Source: an uncultured Proteiniphilum sp. | Lineage (GTDB): Bacteria > Bacteroidota > Bacteroidia > Bacteroidales > Dysgonomonadaceae | Direction: 5' to 3' | Length of the DNA: 64,000 nt | Assembly: GCA_927407015.1 (NCBI GenBank) | Contig: CAKMJT010000006.1 | Coordinates: forward strand, 2,153 to 66,152 | Part shown: positions 30,836 through 56,041 of the stretch, in pieces | Numbering within the stretch: position 1 is the first letter of the stretch | Layout: each line of letters begins with the position of its first letter | Position numbers and translations under genes: made by a program | Notes under the pieces: generated by a model | What the model saw: the letters and a program-made list of their open reading frames with translations, nothing else | Databases searched by the model: none | Told to the model about the DNA's origin: nothing

Positions 30836-30848
30836 TTAAACGATTAAT
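30836..30848. promoter_or_regulatory. candidate LacI-family operator core TTAAACGATTAAT (site 1, upstream of the regulator gene)
   Basis: Embedded in the imperfect palindrome GATTAAACGATTAATC with a central CG. It is immediately upstream of the -7 box at 30853 and 29 nt before the lacI-family ATG. The identical 13-mer recurs at 31890 and 31925. Confidence 0.65.
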
Positions 30849-30852
30849 CTTT

Positions 30853-30860
30853 TACTTTTG
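30853..30860 (+). promoter_or_regulatory. candidate -7 promoter box (TACTTTTG)
   Basis: Exact TAnnTTTG match, 17 nt upstream of the ATG at 30877. Confidence 0.5.
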
Positions 30861-30876
30861 CGTTAATTAAAGTTAC

Positions 30877-31872
30877 ATGGAAAGAGTATCTTTGAAAGTG
30901 ATAGCCCGTGAGCTGGGTGTTTCAACAGCAACAGTTTCGCTCGTGCTGAACGGTAAGAATCAGAACGGCCGGGTGAGTATGGATGTGTCAGAAAAAATTC
31001 TGGCAAAAGCTGCTGAGCTGAATTATGTACCCAACAGTTTGGCCAAGGGATTGAAAATGGGTCATTCCAAATCGATTGGTTTGATTATAGCGGATATCTC
31101 AAACGTTTTTTTTGGTACCCTGGCTTTGCATATTCAGAATTATGCAGAACAACAGGGATACACAGTCATTATCGGTAATACCAACGAGGATCCCGAAGAG
31201 ATGTTGAAGATGATTACCTTTCTGAATTCCCGGCAGGTTGACGGTCTGATCATCACCCCCACAGAAGGAGGTGAGTTTATGGTGAAAGCACTTCTGGAAA
31301 AAGAGAAACCTTTGGTGCTGGTCGACCGGATCTATCCCGATATCCATACTGCATCGGTGATGATTAATAATTTTGAGATCAGTTACCGTTCAACCCGGCA
31401 GCTATTGAACAGGGGATGCAACAATCCGGCATTTATATCCTACAAACAGGATCAGGTTCATACCAACGAAAGGAAACGGGGGTACCTGGAAGCGATGCAG
31501 GATGCAGGTCATCATGTCACGGATAAGATAAAGGAAGTAAGTTACCAAAATCTTCAGGAAGATATGGATGGTGCTATTGAAGAGTTGTTGCAAATGAGTC
31601 CGAAAGTAGATGCTATCTTCTTTGCCACCAACTCTATTTCCATTAGTGGGATCCGTTCCCTGCTTAAAAAGGGGTTGCTGGTGCAGAAAGATATTCAGGT
31701 GATGTGTTTCGATGAGAGTGAAGCCATTTTATTGTTTCCTTTTCGGGTTCCCTATGTAAAACAACCGATCGAAGCGATGGGCAAGCGTGCCCTCGAACTG
31801 CTGATCGGTCAAATTGAAAGAAAAGAAAAATCGGGTCAACAAATTGTGTTGGAAGCCGAACTCGTTGTGTGA
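30877..31872 (+). CDS. LacI-family transcriptional regulator
   Basis: HTH 'LKVIARELGVSTATVSLVLNG' followed by a periplasmic-binding-protein-like sugar-binding core. 331 aa. Confidence 0.92.
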   Translation: MERVSLKVIARELGVSTATVSLVLNGKNQNGRVSMDVSEKILAKAAELNYVPNSLAKGLKMGHSKSIGLIIADISNVFFGTLALHIQNYAEQQGYTVIIGNTNEDPEEMLKMITFLNSRQVDGLIITPTEGGEFMVKALLEKEKPLVLVDRIYPDIHTASVMINNFEISYRSTRQLLNRGCNNPAFISYKQDQVHTNERKRGYLEAMQDAGHHVTDKIKEVSYQNLQEDMDGAIEELLQMSPKVDAIFFATNSISISGIRSLLKKGLLVQKDIQVMCFDESEAILLFPFRVPYVKQPIEAMGKRALELLIGQIERKEKSGQQIVLEAELVV

Positions 31873-31889
31873 TTTTTTTGTGGATTAAG

Positions 31890-31902
31890 TTAAACGATTA
31901 AT
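31890..31902. promoter_or_regulatory. candidate LacI-family operator core TTAAACGATTAAT (site 2)
   Basis: 13/13 identical to sites 1 and 3. Lies 68 nt upstream of the fucI ATG. Confidence 0.65.
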
Positions 31903-31924
31903 ATTATTTATTTGTCCTTTTTAG

Positions 31925-31937
31925 TTAAACGATTAAT
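31925..31937. promoter_or_regulatory. candidate LacI-family operator core TTAAACGATTAAT (site 3)
   Basis: 13/13 identical. Lies 33 nt upstream of the fucI ATG and 35 bp (start to start) from site 2. Confidence 0.65.
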
Positions 31938-31969
31938 TTAATAATGGACGAAACAATTAAACAGAAAGT

Positions 31970-33745
31970 ATGAAACAAGTTTATCCCAAAATTGGTATTC
32001 GCCCCATCATTGATGGCAGGCGCGGAGGCATCAGGGAATCCCTCGAAGAGACCACCATGAGTCTGGCAAAAAGTGCAGCAAAATTGTATTCCGAAACGTT
32101 GAAGTATCCCGATGGGTCTCCTGTGGAGTGCGTCATTGCGGATACAACGATCGGCGGTGTAAAAGAAGCGGCTCTGTGTGCAGAAAAATTTGAAAAAGAA
32201 GGAGTGGGCTTGACCTTATCCGTAACACCTTGCTGGTGTTACGGGTCTGAGACGATCGACATGAATCCCCTCATTCCGAAAGCAATCTGGGGTTTCAATG
32301 GGACGGAACGCCCGGGAGCTGTCTATCTTTCGGCCGCATTGGCGGTACATAACCAAAAGGGTTTGCCCGCCTTCGGCATTTACGGCAAAGATGTACAGGA
32401 CGTGGGAGACACGTCCATTCCGGGGGATGTACGCGAGAAGCTCTTGAGGTTTGCCAAAGCAGGACTGGCTGTGGCGATCATGCGGGGAAAATCTTATCTG
32501 GCCATCGGATCGGTATCGATGGGAATAGGCGGATCGATGGTAAATCCCGATTTTTTGCAGGAGTATTTGGGTATGCGTACCGAACAGGTGGATGCCAGTG
32601 AAGTTCTTCGTCGTATTCAGCTTGGTATTTACGATAAAGAGGAATTTGAAAAAGCGATGGCTTGGACAAAAGAAAACTGTATGTCGCGTGAAGGCGAAGA
32701 TTTCAATCCGGAACACCTGAAACACAGCAGGGAGCAGAAATACAAAGACTGGGAATTTGTGGTGAAGATGACATTGATCATGCGTGATTTAATGATTGGA
32801 AATTCCAAGCTCGATGAAATGGGATTCGGGGAAGAAGCACTCGGTCATAATGCCATTGCAGGAGGTTTCCAGGGACAACGGCAGTGGACTGATTTCCTGC
32901 CAGATGGCGACTTCTCGGAAACCATTCTCAATTCCTCGTTCGACTGGAATGGAAAGCGCGAACCATTCATTTTCGCCACCGAAGACGATCATTTGAACGG
33001 AATAAGTATGCTTTTCAATCATCTGCTCACCAACACCTCGCAAATGTTTGCCGATGTCCGTACTTATTGGAGTCCCGAAGCTATTGAGCGGGTCAGTGGA
33101 TGGAAGCCGGAAGGTTTGCTGGCGCATGGGGCTATTTTTCTCAAAAACTCCGGTTCCTGCACCCTTGATGGCACCGGTCAGCAGTCCGATGCCATCGGCA
33201 ATCCGGTAATGAAGCCTTTCTGGGAAATCACCGATGAGGAGGTGGAAAGAATGTTGGAAGCCACAACCTGGTATCCCGCATCTCTGGAGTACATGCGAGG
33301 CGGAGGCTACTCATCCCAATTTCTGACCAGGGAAGGTATGCCGGTCACCATGAGCCGCATCAACCTGATCAAGGGTTTGGGACCGGTATTGCAGATTGCT
33401 GAGGGGTGGACGGCTACGTTTCCTGATCATGTTTTCCAGCTGATCGACGGGCGGACCGACAAAACCTGGCCATCTACATTTTTCGTGCCCCGTATTACCG
33501 GCAAAGGGCATTTTACCGATGTCTATGAGGTGATGAACCACTGGGGAGCTAACCATGCGGCTATCAGCTACGGACATATTGGAGCCGATTTGATTACGTT
33601 GGCTTCGGCAATTTCTATTCCCGTGAATATGCATAATGTGGATGAAGGGAAAATCTTCCGTCCCGGTGCTTGGTCGGCTTTCGGATCTGACAACGAAGGT
33701 GCGGACTACCGCGCATGTGCCGCATACGGACCACTATACAGGTAG
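31970..33745 (+). CDS. fucI: L-fucose isomerase family enzyme (FucI; also the classical D-arabinose isomerase)
   Basis: 591 aa. N-terminus '[22 protein letters not shown]'. Also '[16 protein letters not shown]', '[10 protein letters not shown]' and '[23 protein letters not shown]'. Confidence 0.92.
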
Positions 33746-33798
33746 CGTGTAGATTGTGAGAAATAATCTGAATCTTATAAACCAAATATATTGATAGA

Positions 33799-34998
33799 AT
33801 GAGGAAAATTGATTTTAAAATGCTGAATTTATGCACCTTTATTCTGGGGATTATGCTTTCGTTTCCTCTCTTTTCACAGACGGAGCCGATGGGGGATATG
33901 TTTGAGCTGGCAAAAATGAAATCTGGCGTGAAGAACAGAAGGATCTCCAGTACCGACCCCACGGGAGGCAACAGGGATCATCTGGAACCTTTTGCCCCCG
34001 GTGAAAAAAGAACCATCGCGGAGATAAAGGGAACCGGTGTGATCAATCATATCTGGATTACCATTGCCCCTCCGCCGGGTGAACTGAGCAGGAACGATAT
34101 CATTATCCGGATGTACTGGGACGGGAACGACTATCCCTCCGTGGAATCTCCCATTGGCCCATTTTTCGGGCAGGGGTGGGACGAACAGTATAACTACGCC
34201 TCGCTTCCCTTGTCGGCAGGACCTGTGAACGGAACAGGATTGAGCAGTTACTTTGCAATGCCTTTTGAGAAAGGTGCCCGCATCGAAATAGAGAACCAAA
34301 ACGACAAACCCATCAATGCTTTCTATTTTTATGTGGATTATCTTGAAATGGAACAGCTTCCCGAAGGCATGGGCCGCTTTCATGCTTGGTACAACCATAC
34401 CCTTTCGGAAGCATTGCCCGAAGGTGAAACAGAATGGGGGCTGACCGCTGCTCAGAAACCGAACCTCGAAGGGAAAAGGAACTACCGGTTCATAGATACG
34501 AAAGGAAAAGGTCATTTCGTGGGTATCAACTACTATGTCCACTCTCCCACCCCGATGTGGTACGGTGAGGGAGATGATATGTGGTTTATCGATGGGGAGG
34601 AAAAACCGCGACTGATTGGTACCGGTACCGAAGATTTCTTCAACACCTCTTGGTGCCCGAAGGAGCCCTTCTCCCACCCTCATTTCGGATATCCGCGTAT
34701 AAACAATGATATAGGCTGGCTTGGACGAACACATATCTACCGTTTTTTCATCAATGATCCTATTTTCTTTGAAACAAGCGTGAAGGGCACCATCGAGACC
34801 GGTCACAACAACAACCTGACGCTCGATCTCTCCACCGTCGCCTACTGGTATCAGGACCGTGTTGTGATGCTGCCGCCGGCACCCACCAAAGAGCAGCGTC
34901 AGCCGAAGCCTTTTATCAATCATATGGATATACACCGCTGGAGAGATGCATGGCGGAAAGCAAAGGGGAATGATCCGAAATTGTGGGGAAATGAATGA
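33799..34998 (+). CDS. DUF2961 / glycoside hydrolase family 172 protein (paralog a), secreted
   Basis: 'GTGVINHIWITIAPP', 'IIIRMYWDGNDYPSVESPIGPFFGQGW', 'YFAMPFEKGARIEIEN' and 'GTGTEDFFNTSWC'. Has a signal peptide. Its stop overlaps the SusC ATG (ATGA). Confidence 0.85.
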   Translation: MRKIDFKMLNLCTFILGIMLSFPLFSQTEPMGDMFELAKMKSGVKNRRISSTDPTGGNRDHLEPFAPGEKRTIAEIKGTGVINHIWITIAPPPGELSRNDIIIRMYWDGNDYPSVESPIGPFFGQGWDEQYNYASLPLSAGPVNGTGLSSYFAMPFEKGARIEIENQNDKPINAFYFYVDYLEMEQLPEGMGRFHAWYNHTLSEALPEGETEWGLTAAQKPNLEGKRNYRFIDTKGKGHFVGINYYVHSPTPMWYGEGDDMWFIDGEEKPRLIGTGTEDFFNTSWCPKEPFSHPHFGYPRINNDIGWLGRTHIYRFFINDPIFFETSVKGTIETGHNNNLTLDLSTVAYWYQDRVVMLPPAPTKEQRQPKPFINHMDIHRWRDAWRKAKGNDPKLWGNE

Positions 34999-37900
34999 AA
35001 ATCTATAAAACAAATTTTTTTATGAAAGATATAATCCAAATTACAGGCAAATTATTGTTTACTTATTTGCTTTTATCTCTGGCTTTTTATGCCAATGCCG
35101 TGAATCATTCCGTAGGGGTGGATCAGGGTAAAACGATACGCGGGGTTGTTTCTGAACAAAGTACCAACGAGCCGCTGACAGGAGTAAGTGTGTATGTAAA
35201 GGGTACCACTATTGGTACCACTACCAATATTAACGGAGAATATCAACTGATCGTCCCGTCCGAAGATGCCGTGCTTGTCTTTTCTTTTATTGGTAAAAGA
35301 ACAGTAGAACGGCCGGTAAGGGGTATCAGTGTCATTAACGTTGTGATGATTGATGATGCTACTATGCTGGATGAATTCGTTTACACAGGATATATGACAC
35401 AAAAGAAAGTTGATCTTACCGGATCTGTTTCCATTGCTACGAGCAGTGATATTATTAAAAATCCTTCAGCCAATGCCATGAAAGCATTACAGGGTAAGCT
35501 TTCGGGTGTGTATATCACTACGAATGGAGGAAATCCGGCGGAAGGAGTGAACATTCAAATCCGGGGACTCTCCTCTCTTTCCGGTGCCGTCCGGCCCTTG
35601 ATTGTACTGGATGGAATGCCAACGGAAAACCTGAACCTCAGAGATATCAACGCTGGAGATATTGAATCTATACAGGTACTGAAAGATGCGGCATCAGCCA
35701 GCATTTACGGAGCTCGTGCTTCGGGTGGGGTCATATTGATTCAAACAAAAAAAGGGAAAGAGGGCAAGATTACGGTTGAATATAGCGGAAATGTCTCATT
35801 TAGTTCTGTACTGAATAAGCCTACCCTGATGAATGCGGAACAGTATGGTATTGCAGCCTTCAGGGCGGCGGCATACGACGAGAAAGTGTATGGGGTACCC
35901 ATGGCACTTCCGGGAACGTACGACTTTACCTGGCAAAGAGGAACTGACGGATTACCCATACTTGAAGAGGTTATGGCGAAAGAATGGCTTAACGCTGAGC
36001 AGACTGTCCGAGGTGCGGATACAAACTGGATGGATGAGATTTTCCAGACTGCTCTTATGACCAATCATCAGGTTACTGTGTCAAATGGAACCGAACGGTC
36101 AAAAAGTCTGTTTTCACTCGGCTATTTTAACAACGAAGGAACACAGATTCACACCTTTTTCAAACAATATTCGGTACGTGCAAATACAGAATACGGATTA
36201 TTGGATAACAGGTTGAAAATCGGTGAAAACATCGCACTGAGCTATCTGCAGTACAGAGATGCTAATGAAACCAGATGGGCAATGATTAATCCTCCTGCAG
36301 CTCCAGTTTATGATATCAATGGCAACTGGGCAGGTACACCCGGTTTCGATGACTTTACCAATCCTGTGCGTGTACTGACCATGAATAAGGATAACGTGAA
36401 TAATTATGTGAAGATCATCGGGAATATTTTCGCGGATCTGAGAATATGGAACAATATTTCTGCTCGTACTCAGTTTGGTGTAGACTATGGCAATGCATAC
36501 AGCAGAATAATCGAAGGAGAATGGTCGGAGACCGGTGGCAGGAACAGCGACGGTGAGAATTATGTGGCTAACTATCAATCTCATCCTCTCAGCTATGTGT
36601 GGACAAACACTCTTTCCTATAACCTGAGTTCAGACCGACATACGCTCGACGCCGTGTTAGGTACTGAGTTCACCAGATATGTCCAGGAGGGATTTTCGGC
36701 ACGAAGAGAGGGAATTTATTTGGAAGACAGAGACTTTGCTCACCTGGGCGTAACAACGGGAACCAAGTATTCGCTGGGGAGCTCGGCCGATGAATATACC
36801 TACTTGTCTCTTTTCGGAAAAGTGAACTACGCGCTGGACTCAAAATACCTCTTTTCATTCACATTGCGAAGAGACGGATCGTCTCTCTTTGGGGCCAATA
36901 ACCGGTACGGTACTTTTCCTGCCGTTTCCGCAGGATGGAGAATCATCAATGAACCCTTTATGAGCGAAGTTGACGGAGTGTCAGACCTCAAATTGCGTGC
37001 AAGCTGGGGAGCCAACGGAAGTGTACAGGGTCTGCCACGCGGATACACCTCTACTCCCTTTACGACTGATTATTTTAGCACGTCATACCCGATTGAAGGA
37101 AATGAAAGCGGTCCCCTCTACTCCGGTTATAGAAGAACCTGGCTGGGTAACCCTGATTTGAAATGGGAGACCACCACGCAGACTGACCTGGCAATTGATT
37201 ATGGATTTTTTAACCAGAGAATTTACGGTACTCTGGGATACTATTTTAAGAGGACAAATGACGTATTGGTGCAGGTACCCTATATTGCTGCCATGGGAGA
37301 AGGAGGTGAACCATGGATTAACGGGGCTAATATGAATAACCAGGGAATTGAATTCGAATTCACTTATAGAAACGATCCTGTTGATGTCTTCCAGTATGCC
37401 ATAACTGCCAATATCGGCTCCTATAGGACGAAATTGATAGACCTACCTGAAAATGTAATTAACAGATATCCGGGCGACGGAATGCGTGATTTTGTGATTG
37501 GCAGAACGCCCAATATTCTATACGGGTTGGTAGCCGATGGCATTTTCAAGACTCAAGAAGAGGTGGATAATCATGCTGAACAAACCGGTAAAGCAGTAGG
37601 GCGTATCCGCTATAAAGATCTGGACGGAAATGGCGTGGTGGATGAACTGTACGACAGGACGTTTATTGGCATCACTGACCCCGATTTCTTTGGTGGTATT
37701 ACCTTTGATATAGGATACAGGAATTTCGATTTAAATCTCTTCTTCCAGGGTGTTTATGGCAATAAAGTGAATAACATATGGAAACAGGAGAGTGATTTAT
37801 GGAATATTTCTGTACCCGCCGGTAAAAACCATGAAGTAAGAATGCTCGACGCATGGTATTTTGATAATACCGATTCTGATATACCTGCTGTTTCCAATTC

Positions 37901-38174
37901 GAACCCGAACAGTGAACAAAGATTCTCTTCCTATTTTGTGGAAGACGGTTCTTATCTGAAACTCCGAAATATCGAATTGGGTTATACTTTTCCGAAACAA
38001 CTTACAAAGGCTATGATGATGCAGAACCTGCGAATATATGCATCTGCGAGGAATGTGTTAACCCTAAAAAAAGGATGGGGCGATGACAAATACACCAGTT
38101 TCGATCCCGAAATGCCGGGTTATGGTTATATGACGCCGTTTACAATGGCTTTTGGAATTAATGTAACTTTTTAA
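34995..38174 (+). CDS. SusC/RagA-family TonB-linked outer membrane protein
   Basis: CarboxypepD_reg 'IRGVVSEQSTNEPLTGVSVYVKGTTIGTTTNINGEYQL', plug 'IQIRGLSSLSG...PLIVLDGMP' and 'SIQVLKDAASASIYGARASGGVILIQTKKG'. The C-terminus is '...AFGINVTF'. No STN/anti-sigma domain. Confidence 0.95.
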   Translation: MKIYKTNFFMKDIIQITGKLLFTYLLLSLAFYANAVNHSVGVDQGKTIRGVVSEQSTNEPLTGVSVYVKGTTIGTTTNINGEYQLIVPSEDAVLVFSFIGKRTVERPVRGISVINVVMIDDATMLDEFVYTGYMTQKKVDLTGSVSIATSSDIIKNPSANAMKALQGKLSGVYITTNGGNPAEGVNIQIRGLSSLSGAVRPLIVLDGMPTENLNLRDINAGDIESIQVLKDAASASIYGARASGGVILIQTKKGKEGKITVEYSGNVSFSSVLNKPTLMNAEQYGIAAFRAAAYDEKVYGVPMALPGTYDFTWQRGTDGLPILEEVMAKEWLNAEQTVRGADTNWMDEIFQTALMTNHQVTVSNGTERSKSLFSLGYFNNEGTQIHTFFKQYSVRANTEYGLLDNRLKIGENIALSYLQYRDANETRWAMINPPAAPVYDINGNWAGTPGFDDFTNPVRVLTMNKDNVNNYVKIIGNIFADLRIWNNISARTQFGVDYGNAYSRIIEGEWSETGGRNSDGENYVANYQSHPLSYVWTNTLSYNLSSDRHTLDAVLGTEFTRYVQEGFSARREGIYLEDRDFAHLGVTTGTKYSLGSSADEYTYLSLFGKVNYALDSKYLFSFTLRRDGSSLFGANNRYGTFPAVSAGWRIINEPFMSEVDGVSDLKLRASWGANGSVQGLPRGYTSTPFTTDYFSTSYPIEGNESGPLYSGYRRTWLGNPDLKWETTTQTDLAIDYGFFNQRIYGTLGYYFKRTNDVLVQVPYIAAMGEGGEPWINGANMNNQGIEFEFTYRNDPVDVFQYAITANIGSYRTKLIDLPENVINRYPGDGMRDFVIGRTPNILYGLVADGIFKTQEEVDNHAEQTGKAVGRIRYKDLDGNGVVDELYDRTFIGITDPDFFGGITFDIGYRNFDLNLFFQGVYGNKVNNIWKQESDLWNISVPAGKNHEVRMLDAWYFDNTDSDIPAVSNSNPNSEQRFSSYFVEDGSYLKLRNIELGYTFPKQLTKAMMMQNLRIYASARNVLTLKKGWGDDKYTSFDPEMPGYGYMTPFTMAFGINVTF

Positions 38175-38187
38175 TGATACCCATGTT

Positions 38188-39996: not shown

Positions 39997-40020
39997 TTTT
40001 TATTCTTAAAATATTTGATT

Positions 40021-40431
40021 ATGAGAAAGATAAGCAAAATAATTCTTGTTATACTCACCATCATGCTCTTTACGGGTTGTTACGATCGGGATATTATTGA
40101 CAGGAAAGATTTTCATCACACTTTGCCAAAGGTGGAGAATTTATCTTATTCCTTACAGGGGAATGTAGTGACACTCACCTGGCAGATACCGGATAATATA
40201 TCCGATGCTTTCACCAGGCCCCTGCAGGCAAGAGTTCAGGTAGTTGAAAATGATATCTACAGACAGGTAGTGACTGTCTATGATGAGCAGAACACGGCGG
40301 AGATTACCATCGATCCGGATAAGGATTACCGGTTCATCGTCAAGTTGCTGGGTTTCCTGACTCCTGACGCAAGGGAAGAGGGTTTTACCGACAGGGTCTT
40401 TTCAGAAGGAGAGATTATCGTAACAGAGTAA
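40021..40431 (+). CDS. small lipoprotein, 136 aa, single beta-sandwich-like domain (SusE/F position)
   Basis: The track start at 40015 is TTG. The ATG at 40021 gives MRKISKIILVILTIMLFTGC followed by YDRD. 'LSYSLQGNVVTLTWQIPDN' resembles an FN3/Ig strand pattern. Confidence 0.6.
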   Translation: MRKISKIILVILTIMLFTGCYDRDIIDRKDFHHTLPKVENLSYSLQGNVVTLTWQIPDNISDAFTRPLQARVQVVENDIYRQVVTVYDEQNTAEITIDPDKDYRFIVKLLGFLTPDAREEGFTDRVFSEGEIIVTE

Positions 40432-40579
40432 TTTTTATGAGCAGATAATATATTCATAAAGAATTTGGGAGGTATGTTAAAGTGATCTGAAATGAGCCAT
40501 GTGGGACATACCTTCCCTTCTTTTTTCATATTCTATTGTCATTTGTCTGGTAGAACCGATCATGCAATAAGGAAATCAA

Positions 40580-41986: not shown

Positions 41987-42065
41987 CAGTAATCGATGTG
42001 ACCAGTAACTGATATGCCATCACAGCATACTCTCAATAAATGTTCCACCATGAGTAAATAGGTGT

Positions 42066-46161: not shown

Positions 46162-46273
46162 TCCAACTGTTTCCCTGATCAAACAGATAATTTCAACAAG
46201 ATATAATGGAGTAATCCAATAATTGTATAAATTTGTTCAAATTTAACTTAACGCACTAACTGAATTATTGATT

Positions 46274-47446: not shown

Positions 47447-47468
47447 TCAAAAAAACAATTTTTTTATA

Positions 47469-49409
47469 ATGCGTACGATCAAAACAACATTGCTTTTCTC
47501 AATCCTGCTGCTGCCAGGCATCACCTCCCTGCAGGGACAAAACAATCGCTTCCGCTGGAGCAGCGAACTGGAACAGCTGAAAAGAGTGGATCAGCTTCCT
47601 CTCTACAGAGAACGGCAGCTCATTGACCAGGAATCGAGTTACGACCGTACAGGCGGCAACAACGACGGCTTCTCGGGACATTACTCCTATATCCGCAAAG
47701 AGGGGGATAACCTCGTACTGGCCGACTTCAGGGGACCGGGCGTGGTGAACAGGATCTGGACCCCTACCCCAACCAGCGACACGCTCCTCTTCTTTTTTGA
47801 CGGCGAGAATCAGCCGCGGCTGAAGATCTGCTTTATGGATCTCTTTAGCGGCAAGGTATATCCCTTCGTGAAACCGGTGGTAGGCAATGAGATCGGCGGA
47901 TACTACAGCTATATCCCCATCCCGTTCCAAAAATCACTCAAAATCGTCTTCCAGGGTAATCATCTCATGTTCCTTCAGATACAGTACCGCAAGCTACCAG
48001 GCATGAAGGTGGAGAGCTGGACGGGCGAATTCTCCCACTCCGACAGGAAGCTGTTGTCGGAGGTGGCAGAACTCTGGGCCGACATCACCCCCTCCGTGGA
48101 GAACTACACTGCAGGTCTTTCTGAAGGTGCCGTAATGGAGGAGAAAACCTTCACCCTGCTGCCCGGAGAGGAGGTTTCCTTCTTTGAAAAGGATGGTGCT
48201 GGTCGAATCGTCGGGCTTGAAGTCGATGGAGGAACCGCATTCGAGGGTATATACAAGGACGTGTTACTGGTTTCGTCGTGGGACAATGAGGCGGTAGAAG
48301 CGATCTATGCCCCCGTGGCCGATTTCTTCGGATATGCCTACGGCAAGCCGGCCATGCGCAGTATCCTGATGGGACGGCAGGCTACCACCAACTACTGCTA
48401 CCTGCCGATGCCCTTCGATCGCTCGGCATCCATGAAGCTGATTTATAAAAAGAGGAAGGGAGTGAAACAGAACCCCCTGTCGGTCACCACGAAGGTCTAC
48501 TACAACGACAACGGACGCAACCAGAAGAGCGAAGGAAAGCTTTACACCCTATGGAGACGCGAGAAGCCGGAGCTGGGTGAGTTTTTCACTTTCCTCGATA
48601 CCAAAGGCAAAGGGCACTATGTGGGCACCATCCACCAGGCACAAGGTTTGCGACCTGGCATGACCCTCTTCTTCGAAGGGGATGACACCACTTACGTGGA
48701 TGGTGGCATGCGCCTGCACGGTACCGGTTCGGAAGATTACTACAACGGCGGATGGTATGCCTTGCTCGATCGATGGGATCGTGGTATCAGCATGCCCCTG
48801 CACGGGTCGCTCGACTATTCCCTGCCGATGAACCGCACGGGAGGCTACCGCTTCTTCCTATCCGACAAAATGTCCTTTGAAAAGGAAATCTATCATGGCA
48901 TAGAGCATGGGGAGGTAAACAACAACTTCCCGGTGGATTATACCTCGGTGGCCTTCTACTACGCCAACAGGTCAATGAGCAGCAGAATGGAACCAACAGA
49001 AGCATTACGCAAGGTCTATCTGCCCGACACCCATGTCTTTTTCCCCCAGCTGATGGAGATCACTCTTGAAAAAGGAATACAGGTGATCTTTGATAGAGGA
49101 CTGGCCCTCTCTTCTTTTGGAAAAGGAGCTGTCAGGGTGATGCTGAATGACGTGCCGGAAGGAAAATACCGCGTACTACTCAATTATCACGAGGGACCCA
49201 GGGGTGCCGACTTCCAGATATGGCAGCGCCAGAACCAACTCTCAGAATGGATCTCAACATGGAAAGAGAAGGAAGGATACCGCGAACGAGTGCATGTAGG
49301 CGATATTCAGCTCACCCCTCAGACCAATTCGATAACGTTACATGTGAGAGACAACGGGAAGTCGAATTTGTTTGAACTGACCCTGATCACACTGGAACGT
49401 ATCGATTAA
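47469..49409 (+). CDS. DUF2961 / GH172 protein (paralog c) with ~150-200-aa C-terminal extension
   Basis: Start taken at the ATG at 47469 (MRTIKTTLLFSILLLPGITSLQGQ). The track ORF's upstream 47 codons overlap the previous gene. Contains 'GPGVVNRIWTPTP', 'LLFFFDGENQPRLKICFMDLF', 'YSYIPIPFQKSLKIVFQ' and 'GTGSEDYYNGGWY', then an extra C-terminal domain. Confidence 0.8.
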   Translation: MRTIKTTLLFSILLLPGITSLQGQNNRFRWSSELEQLKRVDQLPLYRERQLIDQESSYDRTGGNNDGFSGHYSYIRKEGDNLVLADFRGPGVVNRIWTPTPTSDTLLFFFDGENQPRLKICFMDLFSGKVYPFVKPVVGNEIGGYYSYIPIPFQKSLKIVFQGNHLMFLQIQYRKLPGMKVESWTGEFSHSDRKLLSEVAELWADITPSVENYTAGLSEGAVMEEKTFTLLPGEEVSFFEKDGAGRIVGLEVDGGTAFEGIYKDVLLVSSWDNEAVEAIYAPVADFFGYAYGKPAMRSILMGRQATTNYCYLPMPFDRSASMKLIYKKRKGVKQNPLSVTTKVYYNDNGRNQKSEGKLYTLWRREKPELGEFFTFLDTKGKGHYVGTIHQAQGLRPGMTLFFEGDDTTYVDGGMRLHGTGSEDYYNGGWYALLDRWDRGISMPLHGSLDYSLPMNRTGGYRFFLSDKMSFEKEIYHGIEHGEVNNNFPVDYTSVAFYYANRSMSSRMEPTEALRKVYLPDTHVFFPQLMEITLEKGIQVIFDRGLALSSFGKGAVRVMLNDVPEGKYRVLLNYHEGPRGADFQIWQRQNQLSEWISTWKEKEGYRERVHVGDIQLTPQTNSITLHVRDNGKSNLFELTLITLERID

Positions 49410-49421
49410 ACAGCAGGATCA

Positions 49422-51521
49422 ATGGAACAACTTTTTTTGATCATTTCAGCATCCCTGCTTTTGCTGCTGCCCCCTTTTAAGGGGGCGGCGGCAGGCGGGA
49501 AGGCCATGGTGGAACCTGTTGGTGCCTCATCCCTTCCTTTTGACGGTGCTGTCAGCGAAATGATATACGACGAGCTGGGCAATGAGGCTGGGGTACAGAC
49601 TGTAACGGTTATCAGCCCGGAGCTGGTGCATCTGAAACTCGCTTTCAAGCTGGATCGGCCACTTCGGCAGGACGACTGGCGAATGACGCTGATGCCCGGC
49701 TTTACGCCCTCCTTTCACTGGGCGCCGCACCTCACCCCCACCCCGCACCATATCATCGATCAACATGTCTTTCGCTCTCCTGCACTTATCGTGGCGGATG
49801 AGAGGCAGGTGCTGGCATTAATACCGGATCTCGACATCATGCGGGTGGGGACACCGGTGAGATGGTATCTTGATATGGATGCGGAGCAGAACCAATTGAT
49901 CCTGGGGATGTGCAACAGCAGCGTGGATGACCATGTGCTGTTTCGGCGTGCACCGGGCGCCTCCTATCCGGAGGGTGTGGTGGAGGTGGGTTTTTACCTG
50001 CTCTGCACTACTGCGGAGGAGGCAATTGAGAACCCGTTCCGTAAACCGCTGGAGTTTATGTGGAGCCGCTGGGGAAACCCGCTCTACAGAAACGGTAATC
50101 CGCTGGAAGGATCACTGGAACCCTATGTGAAGCATACTTATAACTGGGCGTTCAACGGTTGGTACAATGCCGTATGGCAGGAGTTCACGCTCAATGGAAG
50201 AAGGGTGGGTGCCCCAGTATTCATCGTCAACGTGACACAGAGCCCCAACTACCCCGGCAGGGTGAATGAGCGCGAATTTCGCTCCATTTGGAACCAGGCA
50301 TGGTTCAGCTCCCTGCGCTCCGCGAGTGGTCTCTACCGCTATGCCAGGCGTACCGGTAACGACCGGTTGATGGAAAAAGCCCGGATGACCAAGGATTTGG
50401 CACTCTCCTTTCCGCAGCCGGATGGCTTTTTTTACGGCCTTATCGCCACCGAGATGGAAGAGGTGGAGGAAGAGGGAAAAAAATACAACCGCAGCAAGGG
50501 GTGGGACACCTACTACTGGGGTAATTCCAACCGGAACCCCTATAGTTGGAATCCCCGGGAAGCTCCTTTCCATATTCTCGACATGAGCTGGACCGCCCTG
50601 CTGATGCTTCGCTGGTACGATGAGCTGGAACAGGATCAACGCTTGTTCCGCTATGCGGAGACTTATGCCGCAGCATTAATGAAAAAACAGCTGCCGAATG
50701 GCTTCTTCCCCGGCTGGCTGGATCTGAACACACTCCAACCGATTCACCACCTGAATGACTCTCCCGAGACATCTTTGTCAGTCACCTTCCTGCTGAAGCT
50801 GTATGAACTGACAGGGAAGCAAGACTACCGCACTGCATCACTGAAAGCACTGGATGCCGTGATCCGTGAAGTGATTCCTGCCGGCAGGTGGGAGGATTTC
50901 GAAACCTATTGGTCCTGCTCTCGCTACGGAGCAGATCATCTGGTGGGAAAGAAGGTTATCCGAAACAACATGCATAAACAAAACAACTTCTCCATTTTCT
51001 GGACAGCAGAAGCACTGCTTGAAGCCTACCGGATTACTGGCGTCAAATATTACCTTTCACTGGGAGAGCGCACGCTCGATGAGTTACTGATGACCCAGGC
51101 ATCCTGGCAGCCCCCATATATGTATGTGAATGTACTGGGTGGCTTCGGGGTGATGAACGGCGATGGTGAGTGGAACGACTCGCGGCAGAGCCTTTTTGCC
51201 GAACTGATCCTGCGCTACGGCGCTCTACTTGAGAGAGAGGAGTACCGGGAGCGGGGTATTGCAGCTCTGAAAGCCTCCTTCGTGATGATGTACGCTCCCG
51301 AGAACCCGGTAACGAGCCGTCAGTGGGAGAAGGTTTATCCCTTCTTTGGAGAAGCAGATTACGGCTTTACGATGGAGAACTACGGTCACGGGGGACGAAC
51401 CAGTCCCGAAGGGGAAGGAATGGGTGAATTTACCATCTACGACTGGGGGAACGGTGCTGCTGCGGAGGCATATAACCGCATCCTAGATCATTTTCCAGAG
51501 ATTGGGAAAATAATAAGATAA
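49422..51521 (+). CDS. hypothetical secreted protein, 699 aa, C-terminal half looks like an (alpha/alpha)6-barrel
   Basis: Hydrophobic N-terminus MEQLFLIISASLLLLLPPF. Repeated helix-pair blocks: 'TALLMLRWYDELEQDQRLFRYAETYAAAL', 'SVTFLLKLYELTGKQDYRTASLKALDAV', 'FWTAEALLEAYRITGVKYYLSLGERTLDEL' and 'LFAELILRYGALLEREEYRERGIAALKA'. No family recognised. Confidence 0.7.
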   Translation: MEQLFLIISASLLLLLPPFKGAAAGGKAMVEPVGASSLPFDGAVSEMIYDELGNEAGVQTVTVISPELVHLKLAFKLDRPLRQDDWRMTLMPGFTPSFHWAPHLTPTPHHIIDQHVFRSPALIVADERQVLALIPDLDIMRVGTPVRWYLDMDAEQNQLILGMCNSSVDDHVLFRRAPGASYPEGVVEVGFYLLCTTAEEAIENPFRKPLEFMWSRWGNPLYRNGNPLEGSLEPYVKHTYNWAFNGWYNAVWQEFTLNGRRVGAPVFIVNVTQSPNYPGRVNEREFRSIWNQAWFSSLRSASGLYRYARRTGNDRLMEKARMTKDLALSFPQPDGFFYGLIATEMEEVEEEGKKYNRSKGWDTYYWGNSNRNPYSWNPREAPFHILDMSWTALLMLRWYDELEQDQRLFRYAETYAAALMKKQLPNGFFPGWLDLNTLQPIHHLNDSPETSLSVTFLLKLYELTGKQDYRTASLKALDAVIREVIPAGRWEDFETYWSCSRYGADHLVGKKVIRNNMHKQNNFSIFWTAEALLEAYRITGVKYYLSLGERTLDELLMTQASWQPPYMYVNVLGGFGVMNGDGEWNDSRQSLFAELILRYGALLEREEYRERGIAALKASFVMMYAPENPVTSRQWEKVYPFFGEADYGFTMENYGHGGRTSPEGEGMGEFTIYDWGNGAAAEAYNRILDHFPEIGKIIR

Positions 51522-51608
51522 ACAGAAGAGATCCGTTAGGCAGGCCATGCTGGTTACCCGATGGGAGTACAAGAAGATGAACAGAATGAAAAAACAATAT
51601 GAAACAAT

Positions 51609-52874
51609 ATGAAGAAACGAAATCAATTGAGTGGAGTCGTTGCCGCAGTGCTGATCGGGGGGGTGTTTACCCTCTCCTGCACAGGTAACAGGAAAAAAAC
51701 GGAATCTATGGAAATGAACTATGAAAAAGGAACGTTTGGGTATGACCTGAACTACCTCTCGGAAAAAGACAGCCTGATCCTCCTGAAATCGGAAGATGAA
51801 AAGGCACAGGTGATTCTTTCTGCAAAGTACCAGGCAAAGGTTTTCACTTCTACGGCTAACGGCCTGGAGGGAAACAGCCACGGCTTTGTCAACTACAAAT
51901 TCTTCGATGCCGGTATCGTGGATGAGCACATGAACGGCTTTGGCGGTGAAAACCGCTTCTGGCTCGGCCCGGAGGGGGGACAATACTCGGTCTTCTTTGC
52001 ACCGGGAACGGAACAGGTGTATGACAACTGGCACACTCCCAAGCCGATCGATATCGAGGCATGGGAGCTGGACGCTGCTTCTGCCACGGAGGCTGCTTTC
52101 TCCAAAGAGATGGAGGTGAGAAACTATCGGGGTACAGAGCTGAAGATCGGAGCTGAACGGAAAGTCATGTTGCTCTCCAAGGAGGAGAGCAGCAGGGAGC
52201 TGGGATTAAATCTTCCCGGGGAGATGGAGATGGTGGCTTACAGTACCGAGAACAGGATCATCAATCGCAACGATTTTGCCTGGAACGAGGAGACCGGTAC
52301 CGTCTGTATCTGGATGCTCGATATGTTTATCCCGTCCGACTCTGCAGTGACGGTAATCCCCTATCAAACAGGGAGTGAAAAAGAGTTAGGCCGTGTTGTT
52401 ACATCAGATTATTTCGGAGAAATCCATCCCGATCGACTGATCGATGAAAATGGGGTTCTTTTTTTTAAAACGGATGGAAAATCGAGGGGAAAGCTGGGGA
52501 TGAACGCGCACAGGACCAAAGGGATCGCGGCCAACTACGACCCGATCGGGGGGCGGCTTACCGTGATGACCTTCACCACACAACCTGACGCCACCTACCT
52601 CAACCAGGAGTGGAACCCGGAGAAAGATCCCCTGAAAGGTGACGCTCTCAACGCCTACAACGACGGCCCGCTGGAAGATGGTAGCATCATGGGCCCCTTC
52701 CTGGAGCTTGAGAGCTGCTCACCGGCCGCTTTTTTAAAACCGGGCGAATCACGCTCTCACAAGCACAATGTGTACCATTTCGAGGGTAATGAGGTCTCCC
52801 TCTCCCCTATTTCAGAAAAATTACTGGGTGTGAGCCTGGAGAAAGTAAAGAATATTTTTAATAGCAATCGGTAA
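51609..52874 (+). CDS. hypothetical lipoprotein, 421 aa (possibly mutarotase-like beta-sandwich; family not recognised)
   Basis: Lipobox 'GGVFTLSC' followed by the basic TGNRKK, which suggests periplasm-facing. 'NGFGGENRFWLGPEGGQYSVFF' is reminiscent of aldose-epimerase-like folds, but only weakly. Confidence 0.65.
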   Translation: MKKRNQLSGVVAAVLIGGVFTLSCTGNRKKTESMEMNYEKGTFGYDLNYLSEKDSLILLKSEDEKAQVILSAKYQAKVFTSTANGLEGNSHGFVNYKFFDAGIVDEHMNGFGGENRFWLGPEGGQYSVFFAPGTEQVYDNWHTPKPIDIEAWELDAASATEAAFSKEMEVRNYRGTELKIGAERKVMLLSKEESSRELGLNLPGEMEMVAYSTENRIINRNDFAWNEETGTVCIWMLDMFIPSDSAVTVIPYQTGSEKELGRVVTSDYFGEIHPDRLIDENGVLFFKTDGKSRGKLGMNAHRTKGIAANYDPIGGRLTVMTFTTQPDATYLNQEWNPEKDPLKGDALNAYNDGPLEDGSIMGPFLELESCSPAAFLKPGESRSHKHNVYHFEGNEVSLSPISEKLLGVSLEKVKNIFNSNR

Positions 52875-52883
52875 TCAGAATAA

Positions 52884-52938
52884 CCTGACTAAGCACTGAC
52901 GACTGAAAACTGAGCACTGAGCGCTGACAACTGAATAC
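52884..52938. repeat. degenerate short-period 'ACTGA-word' low-complexity tract
   Basis: cctgactaagcactgacgactgaaaactgagcactgagcgctgacaactgaatac: CTGA recurs 7 times at 6-9-nt spacing, in the 86-nt spacer before the permease gene. Confidence 0.7.
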
Positions 52939-52960
52939 AGAACATCGACAACTTAAAAAA

Positions 52961-54406
52961 ATGAATACAAATTCAGAAAAACACCGGCTGGTTCCGGCAG
53001 GGATCATTTTCCCCTTTATCCTTCTCACTTCTCTCTTTTTTATCTGGGCGGTTCCCAACAACATGACCGACACCATGCTGGCGGCATTCAAGCGCATCAT
53101 GAGCCTTTCCGATACGCAGACAGCCTGGATACAGGTTGTCTGCTACTTATTGGGTTATGGCTGTTTCGCATTGCCCGGTGCCATCTTCATCAAAAAGCAT
53201 ACCTATAAATCGGGTGTCCTGCTTGGTTTAGGGTTATGCATTACGGGTACCCTCCTGTTTTATCCGGCGATGCTGGCCAACAGCATCAGTTCACCACTGA
53301 GTTTTGCAACGTATCTGTTTGCAATCTTCGTTCTGTTTGCAGGTTTATCAGTTCTGGAGACTTCAACGAATGCCTATGTATACTCCCTGGGTGATCCGGT
53401 AACCGCTACACGGCGACTCAATTTCTCTCAGTCGTTTAACCCTTTTGGCGCACTCTCCGGTGTTTTGGCGAGCCAGATTTTCATACTGTCGCAGTTAAAT
53501 ACCATGACTGCTGCCAAAAGAGATGCCCTGAGCGGATCGGAACTGGTTGCCATACAGAATGGAGAGTTGAATGCCGTGACCACAGCTTATATGATCCTGG
53601 GCGTAGTGATGCTGGTGCTCTTTCTGTTGATCTACTTTACCCGGATGCCCAAAGCACAGGACGACGATAAAAGTCTGGATCTGAAAGCAACCTGGGGACG
53701 CTTGAAGCGGAACAAGAACTACGTGTGGGGTGTGATTGCACAGTTTTTCTACGTGGGTGCCCAGATTGCCGTCTGGTCGTTCATCATTCGTTACGCCATG
53801 CAGCAGCTTAATTTCGATGCCGTTATTGCAGGCCTGGGAGCTAACCCTTCACAGGATGCCATCATTGGGGCATTGCGTAGTGTAGAGCCTATTGCCGGGG
53901 GATTCTATGCATTTACCGAAGCCATTGGCCTTGACGTTCTGCTGCCCCGTACGGCTGAGCAGGCCGGTGCCACCTATTACATCATGTCGCTCATCCTTTT
54001 TGTGTTGGGACGGTTCATCTGCACGTGGCTGATGAAATATATCCGGCCGGTCAACCTCTTATCTGCACTGGCTATATTGGCTGTAATCCTTTCGCTGATT
54101 GCCATTTATGGACAAGGATTTGCGGGAGTCTATGCGCTGATGGGCATTTCCGGATGTATGTCGCTGATGTTTCCCACCATCTACGGATTGGGTATGAGGG
54201 GGCTGGGAGAAGATACCAAGATTGCCGGATCAGGGATGGTAATGGCGATTGCCGGTGCAGCACTGCTGACCCAGATACAGGGAATCCTCTCCGATCAGGC
54301 CGGAAGTATTAATTTTGCCTACTGGGTGCCGGCTATCGCGTTTTTAATAATCGCTTTTTATAGTTTGACGGTTGCCCGCAGCAAAAAGCTGGGCAATGGA
54401 AATTAA
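52961..54406 (+). CDS. fucP: MFS sugar:H+ symporter, L-fucose permease (FucP) family
   Basis: 481 aa, about 12 TM segments. 'FFIWAVPNNMTDTMLAAFKRIMSLS' resembles the FucP N-terminal block (FFLWGFANxLNDILIPxFK). Confidence 0.75.
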   Translation: MNTNSEKHRLVPAGIIFPFILLTSLFFIWAVPNNMTDTMLAAFKRIMSLSDTQTAWIQVVCYLLGYGCFALPGAIFIKKHTYKSGVLLGLGLCITGTLLFYPAMLANSISSPLSFATYLFAIFVLFAGLSVLETSTNAYVYSLGDPVTATRRLNFSQSFNPFGALSGVLASQIFILSQLNTMTAAKRDALSGSELVAIQNGELNAVTTAYMILGVVMLVLFLLIYFTRMPKAQDDDKSLDLKATWGRLKRNKNYVWGVIAQFFYVGAQIAVWSFIIRYAMQQLNFDAVIAGLGANPSQDAIIGALRSVEPIAGGFYAFTEAIGLDVLLPRTAEQAGATYYIMSLILFVLGRFICTWLMKYIRPVNLLSALAILAVILSLIAIYGQGFAGVYALMGISGCMSLMFPTIYGLGMRGLGEDTKIAGSGMVMAIAGAALLTQIQGILSDQAGSINFAYWVPAIAFLIIAFYSLTVARSKKLGNGN

Positions 54407-56041
54407 ATGATTATGAATCAATATATTGTAGGGATAGACTATGGCACGGATTCCTGCCGTGCAATCGTTGTGAATAGCACCACAGGAAAAGAAGAGGCAT
54501 CATATACTGCTTTTTATCCGTGCTGGAGAAAGGGTTTATATTGTGACCCTGCCCAAAACCGCTACCGCCAGCATCCACAGGATTATATCGATTCACTGGA
54601 AGAGGCAATTCGTGGTGTTTTGAGGCAGATGAAGCCCGCAGAGATTGACAACATCGTCGCACTGGGTATCGATACCACCGGGAGTACACCCTGTCTGACA
54701 GACCGGAATGGGATTCCCCTGGCGCTGTTGCCCGGGTACGAAGAGGATCCCGACGCCATGTTCGTGTTATGGAAAGACCATACCGCCGTCAACGAGGCGG
54801 ATGAGATCAACAGACTGGCCCATGGGTGGGAGACCGACTATACCGCACGCTCCGGAGGAATCTACTCCTCCGAATGGTTCTGGTCAAAGGCACTCCATAT
54901 CCTGCGGCAGAACGAACGCATCCGCCGCGATGCCCGGGGACTGATCGAACATTGCGACTGGATGCCGGCACTGCTGACCGGCAACCTCTTGCCTGAGAAG
55001 GTGAAGAGAAGCCGCTGCGCCGCCGGGCACAAAGGGATGTGGGCGGAGGAATGGGGCGGTTACCCTTCCGCGGCGTTCCTTTCCAGGCTCGATCCCCTGC
55101 TGGGCGAATTCAGGGCGCTTTTAAGCGACGAAACCCATACCGGCGATACTCCGGTCGGGATCCTCACCGAAGAGTGGTCTGAGCGGCTTGGATTGCCCCG
55201 CAGCGTGGTGGTCTCTGCCGGCATCCTCGATGCACATGCCGGGGCCATAGGTGCCGGCATCCGCCCGAACAGCATGGTAAAGATCATCGGCACTTCCACC
55301 TGCGACATCGTGGTCACCCCGAAACAGGATATCGGTGACAAGCTGATCCCGGGCATCAGTGGTCAGGTGGATGGCTCCGTGATCCCCGGGCTGATCGGAC
55401 TGGAAGCGGGACAATCGGCTTTCGGCGACATTTATGCCTGGTTCAGGGATCTACTTTCCTGGACTGCAAATACCCTTCCGGAGAAAGAGAGGGTCGCATT
55501 GGCCGGTAACCTTTTGCAGCAGCTTACTGTCGAGGCAGAAAAATTACCACTTACGGTGGCAGACCCGATTGCCAACGATTGGCTGAATGGTCGCCGCTCC
55601 CCTTTTGCCGATCAGACCCTGAAAGGAGGCATTATCGGGATCACCCTGGGAACTACACCGGCACAACTTTTCAAGAGCCTGGTGGAGGCTACCGCCTTCG
55701 GATCGCGAGCCATCCTGGAGCATCTCGGACAAGAGGGGGTACGGGTGGATGAGGTGATCGGCGTGGGGGGCATTTCTCTGAAGTCGCCTTACGTGATGCA
55801 GACCCTGGCCGATGTGATGGGAGTACCCATCAAAGTGGCTGCCGCACAACAGGCCGGCGCATTGGGTGCGGCCATGTGCGCGGCCGTTTCAGCAGAGGTT
55901 TTCCATACAATGGAGAATGCCCGGGAATCCTTGGGACAGGGCTATAAAACGGTGTACGTTCCGCGTGCGGAAAATCGGGAGACATACAACGCATTGTATG
56001 AAAAATATTGGCAACTAAACCGGTTTTTGGAAGCAAGATAA
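54407..56041 (+). CDS. FGGY-family ribulokinase (AraB-like)
   Basis: The ATG directly abuts the permease stop (TAAATG). Contains 'YIVGIDYGTDSCRAIVV', 'GIDTTGSTP', 'SSEWFWSKALHIL', 'IGTSTCD' and 'GGISLKSPYVMQTLADVMGVPIKV'. The 544-aa length is typical of AraB. Confidence 0.8.
   Translation: MIMNQYIVGIDYGTDSCRAIVVNSTTGKEEASYTAFYPCWRKGLYCDPAQNRYRQHPQDYIDSLEEAIRGVLRQMKPAEIDNIVALGIDTTGSTPCLTDRNGIPLALLPGYEEDPDAMFVLWKDHTAVNEADEINRLAHGWETDYTARSGGIYSSEWFWSKALHILRQNERIRRDARGLIEHCDWMPALLTGNLLPEKVKRSRCAAGHKGMWAEEWGGYPSAAFLSRLDPLLGEFRALLSDETHTGDTPVGILTEEWSERLGLPRSVVVSAGILDAHAGAIGAGIRPNSMVKIIGTSTCDIVVTPKQDIGDKLIPGISGQVDGSVIPGLIGLEAGQSAFGDIYAWFRDLLSWTANTLPEKERVALAGNLLQQLTVEAEKLPLTVADPIANDWLNGRRSPFADQTLKGGIIGITLGTTPAQLFKSLVEATAFGSRAILEHLGQEGVRVDEVIGVGGISLKSPYVMQTLADVMGVPIKVAAAQQAGALGAAMCAAVSAEVFHTMENARESLGQGYKTVYVPRAENRETYNALYEKYWQLNRFLEAR

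Follow-up and report, generated by a model that had tools for sequence, protein, structure and literature searches.

The enzymes that cut D-arabinan, which makes up the core of mycobacterial cell walls and is the target of ethambutol, were identified only in 2023. In Dysgonomonas gadei ATCC BAA-286, the polysaccharide utilisation locus (PUL) PUL42 (HMPREF9455_02464/65 to _02482) was found to be expressed on D-arabinan (Al-Jourani et al. 2023, PMC10115798), and a follow-up of this work on glycoside hydrolase (GH) family 172 is available as a preprint (10.64898/2026.08.13.744632). The D. gadei proteome on D-arabinan had L-fucose isomerase (FucI) as its top protein and also contained LacI, an abundant DUF6786 homologue (HMPREF9455_02469), the ribulokinase HMPREF9455_02482 and HMPREF9455_02473, an uncharacterised protein of 1044 aa that is the probable SusC of PUL42. 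In Microbacterium arabinogalactanolyticum, a cluster induced by D-arabinose encodes EndoMA1/2 of GH183, ExoMA1 of GH172 and ExoMA2 of GH116; its authors proposed an isomerase-plus-kinase route from D-arabinose to D-ribulose-5-phosphate, and had already pointed out the GH116 in the D. gadei cluster (Shimokawa et al. 2023, PMC10509167). Here we analyse a stretch of 64,000 nt (64 kb) from an uncultured Proteiniphilum sp. (contig CAKMJT010000006.1, positions 2,153 to 66,152; hereafter the window), which harbors a 15-gene locus. This locus is very probably a Bacteroidota PUL for D-arabinofuranose (D-Araf) polymers, that is the D-arabinan of Mycobacteriales arabinogalactan or lipoarabinomannan (LAM), and the counterpart of D. 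gadei PUL42. Such a system has been known since 2023 and the locus adds no new principle; its modest additions are an operator conserved in related loci, the wide spread of the locus family and a shortlist of unknown proteins that travel with it.

The ORF listing of the window shows 15 consecutive open reading frames (ORFs) on the plus strand at 30877-56041, about 25 kb, and all features of the locus given below lie on that strand. An earlier note on this DNA, made from the letters alone, had described the same genes, in the same order and tightly spaced, and had read them as a probable D-arabinan or D-arabinofuranoside degradation system. Start codons were picked so as to give sensible signal peptides, and after this correction, which places the start of GH116 at 43126 and that of a small lipoprotein at 40021, the intergenic spacing ranges from -8 nt (355-aa gene/GH116) to +148 nt (DUF4945/GH183). 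For the third GH172 gene the start is most likely 47469 (MRTIKTT..., a signal peptide), the first ATG of the ORF, 47328, being one that would overlap the second GH172 gene. The coordinates of the earlier note essentially stand, except for its left edge, 30836, which is not a start codon but the first base of an operator-like site. Pfam and NCBIfam agree with the families it had named (LacI, FucI, three GH172, SusC, SusD, GH183, GH116, FucP and ribulokinase); of the four proteins for which it could name no family, those of 355 and 699 aa have indeed none in Pfam or NCBIfam, whereas the other two belong to the Pfam families DUF4945 and DUF6786. The genes for SusC and SusD are adjacent and have five GH genes around them, the arrangement that defines a Bacteroidota PUL.

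For comparison, 80 genomic loci were fetched through homologues of the 355-aa family and searched by tblastn with the 15 window proteins; for D. gadei the comparison covers the retrieved stretch of PUL42 (L052) and the published proteome, the SusD and DUF4945 part of PUL42 lying outside that stretch. ORF lengths in L052 match the proteome identifiers HMPREF9455_02465 (LacI, 333 aa) and _02469 (416 aa). Both systems have LacI, FucI, three GH172 enzymes (Dg67, Dg71 and Dg79 types), GH183, GH116, a probable SusC, the DUF6786, 699-aa and 355-aa proteins, a major facilitator superfamily (MFS) permease and a ribulokinase. Protein identity is 53-73% for the retrieved parts, with 65% for the 699-aa protein (against the homologue adjoining Dg71); LacI is 36% identical to its D. 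gadei counterpart. The gene order is rearranged: in L052 the 355-aa homologue is divergent from lacI and is followed by the MFS permease, Dg67, GH116, the DUF6786 homologue and the 699-aa homologue, the catabolic genes being scattered, whereas the window has a single co-directional 15-gene array. In addition, D. gadei has two copies of GH183 and the window one, its GH116 is 859 aa long compared with 1011 aa, and the MFS protein beside its lacI is only 28% identical to the window permease, a true FucP (TIGR00885). The hosts differ as well, a gut isolate in the case of D. gadei and a Proteiniphilum-like environmental anaerobe here. By gene content and protein similarity, the window locus thus corresponds, with its genes rearranged, to a D-arabinan PUL of the PUL42 type that has been published and has experimental support. 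With the Microbacterium cluster it has in common the three enzyme families, their catalytic residues and the isomerase and kinase leading to D-ribulose-5-phosphate, but sequence identity is far lower and the layout is different, since the Gram-positive system secretes its endo-enzymes, imports through an ABC transporter and keeps its exo-enzymes in the cytoplasm, whereas import by SusC/SusD and periplasmic exo-enzymes carrying Sec, Tat or lipoprotein signals would be used here.

The GH183 (DUF4185) lipoprotein gene (40580..41986) matches PF13810 with an E-value of 2.9e-92 over profile positions 2-309 of 309, and the three paralogues GH172a (33799..34998, with a signal peptide), GH172b (46274..47446) and GH172c (646 aa, 47469..49409) match DUF2961 (PF11175) with E-values of 1e-79, 1e-95 and 1e-53, so that hidden Markov models place all four where the earlier note had. 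The best solved-structure match of GH183 is with the Microbacterium endo-alpha-D-arabinanases 8hhv/8ic1 (E 7e-52), and in the alignment to 8hhv D165 (TDLG) corresponds to Asp33, the nucleophile of EndoMA1, and D183 (FGDTF) to Asp51, the acid/base; the protein is therefore predicted to be an endo-alpha-D-arabinanase with D165 as nucleophile and D183 as acid/base. GH116 (1011 aa, 43126..46161; PF12215 at the N-terminal side and PF04685 as the catalytic part), which the earlier note had left unexplained, has its best structural match in the exo-beta-D-arabinofuranosidase ExoMA2 (8ic6, E 1e-99), GBA2-type GH116 reaching just 2e-8. When aligned with a 4-residue offset in chain numbering, its E578 equals the nucleophile Glu431 of ExoMA2, D704 the acid/base Asp557, and H593 and R630 equal His446 and Arg483, the residues that tell beta-D-Araf from beta-glucoside recognition and in whose place the beta-glucosidase TxGH116 has Asp452 and His507. 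On these matches the enzyme is assigned to the exo-beta-D-arabinofuranosidase (ExoMA2) type, GH116 subfamily 4.

Among the GH172 enzymes, GH172a matches D. gadei DG02479 (Dg79; 8ah3, E 2e-189) as well as 4kq7 (E 4e-228), and GH172b has ExoMA1 as its best solved-structure match (8ic8, E 2e-111) and shares 73% identity with D. gadei Dg67, an enzyme that cuts alpha-1,5 and alpha-1,3 linkages. GH172c carries a second, partial GH172 module (an extra jelly-roll domain), similarly to the architecture described for Dg71; in a close relative DUF8441 accompanies the GH172 domains of the corresponding protein. Alignment with Dg67 shows both columns of catalytic glutamates to be invariant in all three paralogues, the nucleophile/acid-base pairs being E278/E257 in GH172a, E283/E261 in GH172b and E422/E403 in GH172c, as compared with the published pairs E277/E256 in Dg79, E264/E242 in Dg67 and E406/E387 in Dg71. 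By sequence, then, GH172a is classed as a Dg79-type exo-alpha-1,5-D-arabinofuranosidase, GH172b as an exo-alpha-D-arabinofuranosidase of the Dg67/ExoMA1 type, and GH172c as having the Dg71-type architecture. The conserved catalytic residues, the D-arabinan enzymes found as nearest structures and the homologues in PUL42 bear out the substrate that the earlier note had proposed.

The remaining genes would account for import and catabolism. GH183, the SusD-like surface lipoprotein (38188..39996, from Pfam and its N-terminus) and the small DUF4945 lipoprotein (40021..40431, Pfam E 6e-43) have acidic residues after the lipobox cysteine and are likely located on the cell surface, next to the SusC-like TonB-dependent transporter (34995..38174, Pfam). 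GH172a, b and c and the 355-aa and 699-aa proteins have N-terminal Sec signals, GH116 begins with a canonical twin-arginine (Tat) motif, SNRRTFLK, and the DUF6786 lipoprotein has a basic stretch after its cysteine and likely faces the periplasm. The N-termini of FucI, the kinase and LacI carry no signal. FucI (591 aa, 31970..33745, cytoplasmic; L-fucose/D-arabinose isomerase, NF008220, 1047 bits) would turn D-arabinose into D-ribulose, the FucP-type MFS permease (52961..54406; TIGR00885, 409 bits against a cut-off of 280) is predicted to import D-arabinose, and the FGGY ribulokinase of the AraB type (54407..56041; NF003154, 665 bits against a cut-off of 428) is predicted to convert D-ribulose to D-ribulose-5-phosphate. 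Neither FucK, FucA, AraA nor AraD was found in the locus or in the larger ORFs of the window (at least 150 aa on its left, at least 120 aa on its right), which fits the isomerase-plus-kinase route to D-ribulose-5-phosphate; the L-fuculokinase model TIGR02628 gives only 39 bits against a cut-off of 471. FucU, too, is missing from the locus and from these larger ORFs, and the genes present thus do not make up an L-fucose (fuc) operon of FucI, FucP, FucK, FucA and FucU, nor an L-arabinose (ara) operon of AraA, AraB and AraD, of which the AraB-type kinase alone is present. When Escherichia coli grows on D-arabinose, its fuc regulon likewise provides import by FucP and isomerisation to D-ribulose by FucI, but proceeds through FucK and FucA by way of D-ribulose-1-phosphate, which is then cleaved; in the window FucK, FucA and FucR are absent and the AraB-type kinase would yield D-ribulose-5-phosphate directly.

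The locus opens with the gene for a LacI-family transcriptional regulator (331 aa, 30877..31872; PF00356 helix-turn-helix and PF00532 Peripla_BP_1) that scores under the cut-off of every named NCBIfam equivalog. The 12-mer TTAAACGATTAA, a near-palindrome with a central CG, as is typical of LacI-family operators, occurs exactly three times in the 64-kb window and only upstream of lacI and fucI; no further match exists in the window even at one mismatch. Site 1 (30836..30847) lies 30 nt upstream of lacI, just upstream of a Bacteroidota-type -7 box, TAnnTTTG, at 30853, and sites 2 (31890..31901) and 3 (31925..31936) lie 69 and 34 nt upstream of fucI, all three on the plus strand. Across the related loci the consensus is GCTTAAACGwTTAAGC, seen in Proteiniphilum, Niabella, Sphingobacterium, Allomuricauda, Bacteroides and Dysgonomonas, ahead of lacI, fucI, GH172, susC and the 355-aa gene, and D. 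gadei has a one-mismatch copy of the operator between its divergent lacI and 355-aa genes. When matches with at most one mismatch are counted in the 80 related loci, 53 of 63 fall in the 8.3% of the sequence outside long ORFs. LacI itself is found in 29 of the 80 loci and in D. gadei (HMPREF9455_02465). The operator TTAAACGATTAA and its conservation across related loci are new here. LacI is predicted to be the repressor of the locus, and we infer that it represses its own gene and a long transcript starting at fucI; that its effector is D-arabinose or a close derivative is a guess. The earlier note had called LacI control atypical, which is right for PULs in general; within this locus family it appears as a conserved rule, rather than a peculiarity of this window, because the operator is conserved in related loci of several Bacteroidota families. 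The locus hence supplies a predicted regulator/operator pair that can be tested. The 112-nt gap between GH116 and GH172b contains another -7 box of the Bacteroidota type, TAAATTTG (46228-46235), 39 nt ahead of GH172b; no operator-like site accompanies it, and it may serve as an internal promoter. Scans for sigma-70 promoters and terminators in the sequence gave the same counts as in shuffled sequence and were not used, and an Rfam search of the locus detected neither riboswitches nor other RNA elements. A 15-bp stem-loop at 56082..56114 (plus strand), 40 nt past the ribulokinase stop and recognised by a consensus match only, is a possible terminator closing the operon.

Taken together, these data suggest the following scheme, which builds on the family assignments and residue conservation found above and in which the localisations and the order of steps are inferred. 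GH183 would cut D-arabinan endo-wise at the cell surface, and the oligosaccharides would be bound by SusD and the DUF4945 lipoprotein and imported by SusC. In the periplasm, GH172a (alpha-1,5 linkages), GH172b (alpha-1,5 linkages and alpha-1,3 branches), GH172c and the Tat-exported GH116 (beta-1,2 caps) would release D-arabinose, the 355-aa, 699-aa and DUF6786 proteins probably dealing with decorations or linkages beyond the known enzymes. FucP would then import D-arabinose, and FucI and the AraB-type kinase would lead it by way of D-ribulose to D-ribulose-5-phosphate and the pentose phosphate pathway. LacI would sit on the TTAAACGATTAA operators at its own and the fucI promoters until it is released by D-arabinose or a derivative, the effector again being a guess.

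Several points weigh against reading the locus as a system for mycobacterial-type arabinan. Substrate, induction and localisation in this organism are all deduced; the operators are found at one promoter region only, and the control of distal genes is assumed; the operator motif is AT-rich, which inflates the intergenic background, although the AT-richness of intergenic DNA explains just part of the motif's non-coding excess; GH172 also holds alpha-D-fructofuranosidases, and in a 94%-identical relative the locus ends with a GH32 gene; and the habitat seems to be an anaerobic enrichment or digester and not a host that bears mycobacteria, so that a different D-Araf glycan may be what is degraded in nature. 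The last point leads to the alternative that survives best: the D-arabinofuranoside chemistry would be unchanged, but in place of mycobacterial-type arabinogalactan or LAM the organism would use some other D-Araf glycan present in anaerobic sludge or sediment. Candidates are the alpha-1,5-D-Araf glycans of Pseudomonas PA7-type pili, the differently decorated arabinans of Corynebacterium, Gordonia and Nocardia, and an undescribed environmental polymer. The closest relatives were found in enrichment or digester metagenomes and in Proteiniphilum and Petrimonas genomes, Dg67 and Dg79 have been reported to degrade the D-Araf oligosaccharides of P. aeruginosa PA7 pilin as well, and the three conserved proteins of unknown function hint at substrate features past plain arabinan. 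However, a set comprising endo-alpha, exo-alpha (of three specificities) and exo-beta activities fits a branched, beta-capped actinobacterial arabinan and exceeds what a short linear pilin glycan needs, which leaves this alternative improbable, if not negligibly so. The habitat suggests actinobacterial necromass (Mycobacterium, Gordonia, Nocardia and Corynebacterium in sludge) or other D-Araf glycans over a host-associated mycobacterium.

It is very doubtful, on the other hand, that the locus serves alpha-D-fructofuranosides, difructose dianhydrides or fructans with GH172 enzymes acting like alphaFFase1. This enzyme does belong to GH172, its structure (PDB 7v1v) is matched by all three paralogues (E 1e-53 to 2e-15), and the close relative mentioned above, L081, has its GH32 gene directly after the ribulokinase; but the paralogues are far nearer to Dg79 (2e-189) and ExoMA1 (2e-111) than to alphaFFase1 (1e-53, 5e-44), the D. 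gadei GH172 enzymes are reported inactive on difructose anhydride I, GH183 and ExoMA2-type GH116 are without a known role on fructans, the catabolic genes are those of a D-arabinose isomerase and a ribulokinase, and neither GH32 nor a fructokinase was found in the window. That the locus serves L-fucosides or plant L-arabinan, as the names FucI, FucP and ribulokinase would have it (FucI and FucP pass the NCBIfam equivalog thresholds for L-fucose isomerase and permease, and the kinase scores as AraB), is hardly credible, as L-fucose isomerase is the classical D-arabinose isomerase in E. coli and leads the D. gadei proteins on D-arabinan, and the locus and the larger ORFs of the window have, besides the missing FucK, FucA, FucU, AraA and AraD, no fucosidase of GH29, GH95 or GH141 and no GH43 or GH51. 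The earlier note had likewise held plant L-arabinan and fructans to be the less likely substrates.

Within the system, only the 355-aa, 699-aa, DUF6786 and DUF4945 proteins are unexplored; the removal of decorations or the cleavage of linkages left by the known enzymes would be a plausible role for them. The 355-aa secreted protein (42066..43133) has a model of high confidence (pLDDT 91.8) with a predicted beta-supersandwich, and its family, with 2116 homologues, has many invariant acidic and aromatic residues. Foldseek found a weak likeness (TM at most 0.42) to the galactose-mutarotase-like domains of GH36, GH38, GH92 and mutarotases, and owing to this weakness a mutarotase function was set aside. 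Of 41 loci that extend 8 kb or more to each side of the gene, 32 have GH172, GH183 or GH116 within 10 kb, and this neighbourhood also occurs in some Actinomycetota (Leifsonia, Rugosimonospora). Homologues without GH172, GH183 or GH116 as neighbours were noted as well (L050, L058-L061, L065, L067, L071 and L078), in Phocaeicola, Armatimonadota, Sumerlaeota, Thermotogota, Planctomycetota and some Actinomycetota, one by a GH5 and an oxidoreductase and another by a GH13, and the family is therefore broader than D-arabinan use; the neighbourhoods in distant phyla are heterogeneous and gave no consistent functional hint.

The 699-aa secreted protein (49422..51521), whose family has 1625 homologues, has an AlphaFold model of low confidence (pLDDT 63.7), from which the fold class alone is taken: according to Foldseek a beta-sandwich on the N-terminal side is followed by an (alpha/alpha)6-barrel on the C-terminal side, a combination found in many glycoside hydrolases, lyases and phosphorylases. 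Some homologues have weak matches to GH88, GH127 or GH47, and the protein is a candidate glycoside hydrolase. Profile-profile comparison found no relation of the family to GH116, though the fold class is shared. Single metagenomic ORFs of 1121-1174 aa (P0189, P0192, P0194 and similar) from several independent assemblies, belonging to one lineage, comprise a full-length GH183, 70% identical to that of the window, together with a protein of the 699-aa family; a Rosetta-stone fusion was rejected for them, since a signal-peptide-like stretch remains at the junction, which speaks for adjacency or read-through only. The DUF6786 lipoprotein (421 aa, 51609..52874, Pfam E 2e-153) belongs to a family of 6179 homologues, which in Bacteroides sits within a LacI-FucI-DUF6786-FucP-RibK operon; no relation to the 355-aa family was found by profile-profile comparison. 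Profiles of the 355-aa, 699-aa and DUF6786 families, run against the sequences in the PDB, returned no matches. The DUF4945 gene comes after SusD wherever it is found, in 14 related loci, and its product is probably a surface glycan-binding accessory protein. A literature search on DUF6786, DUF4945, DUF5107 and later accessory-protein work returned nothing relevant.

The 355-aa, 699-aa and DUF6786 proteins are accordingly listed as candidate accessory enzymes; possible roles include the removal of galactosamine, succinyl or cap substituents, or the cutting of the arabinan-galactan junction. It is conceivable, if a little short of probable, that at least one of the three founds a new family of carbohydrate-active enzymes needed for the full breakdown of natural, decorated D-arabinan and that the pair of LacI and TTAAACGwTTAA defines a D-arabinose-responsive regulon shared across Bacteroidota. 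Such proteins are targets in the search for missing activities on arabinogalactan and LAM and for analytical enzymes in mycobacterial glycobiology.

The gene order from FucI to DUF6786 is identical in Proteiniphilum acetatigenes DSM 18083 (L046), Petrimonas sulfuriphila DSM 16547 (L035), Seramator thermalis (L041) and one metagenome-assembled Proteiniphilum genome, with protein identities by tblastn of 70-91%, and 50-58% for the 355-aa protein (50-57% in the three named species); to our knowledge the loci of P. acetatigenes, P. sulfuriphila and S. thermalis are unstudied and exist as genome sequences only. The best database matches of the window proteins are 90-94% identical and labelled Proteiniphilum, which makes the host a Proteiniphilum-like representative of the Dysgonomonadaceae; a look-up of the exact GH183 protein sequence returned no entry in the collection. 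Simpler versions of the locus occur in Bacteroides, Sphingobacterium, Niabella and others, several of which have the LacI-FucI-DUF6786-FucP-RibK operon divergent from the 355-aa gene. The PUL42-type system is widespread in environmental Dysgonomonadaceae, Chitinophagaceae, Sphingobacteriaceae and Bacteroides, a spread suggesting that anaerobic communities regularly draw carbon from the cell-wall necromass of actinobacteria. The close relative L081 (Logan SRR29076162 contig), is 94.5% identical in DNA over window positions 46343-55893; its extra GH32 gene (523 aa, 10283-11854) lies between the ribulokinase and radical-SAM genes, where the window has 383 nt of non-coding DNA (56042-56424). Beta-D-fructofuranose and beta-D-Araf are close analogues. 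In the flank at 56494-60113 identity drops to 84% for the radical-SAM gene and 77% for the VTT/polA part, compared with the 94.5% nucleotide identity of the PUL, which suggests that the locus or part of it was exchanged recently between related species at the same chromosomal site.

Housekeeping genes border the locus in the window, to its left nadA and ychF and to its right polA and genes for radical-SAM and VTT-domain proteins. A separate carbohydrate-active pair, without relation to the D-arabinan locus, consists of a GH76-like protein (3364-4812, minus strand) and, next to it, a 1287-aa GH2 beta-galactosidase-like protein (5055-8918, plus strand) whose C-terminal domain is of the F5/8 type C. 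A 745-aa ORF without a Pfam family (562-2799, minus strand) was noted near the left end, where the window has its lowest GC content (positions 1-2000, 33.6% as against 45-55% elsewhere). Finally, a TonB-dependent receptor that contains a carboxypeptidase-regulatory-like domain (21796-24540, minus strand) is followed immediately downstream by a 662-aa protein without a Pfam family (19796-21784, minus strand), in the position expected of a SusD-like partner.

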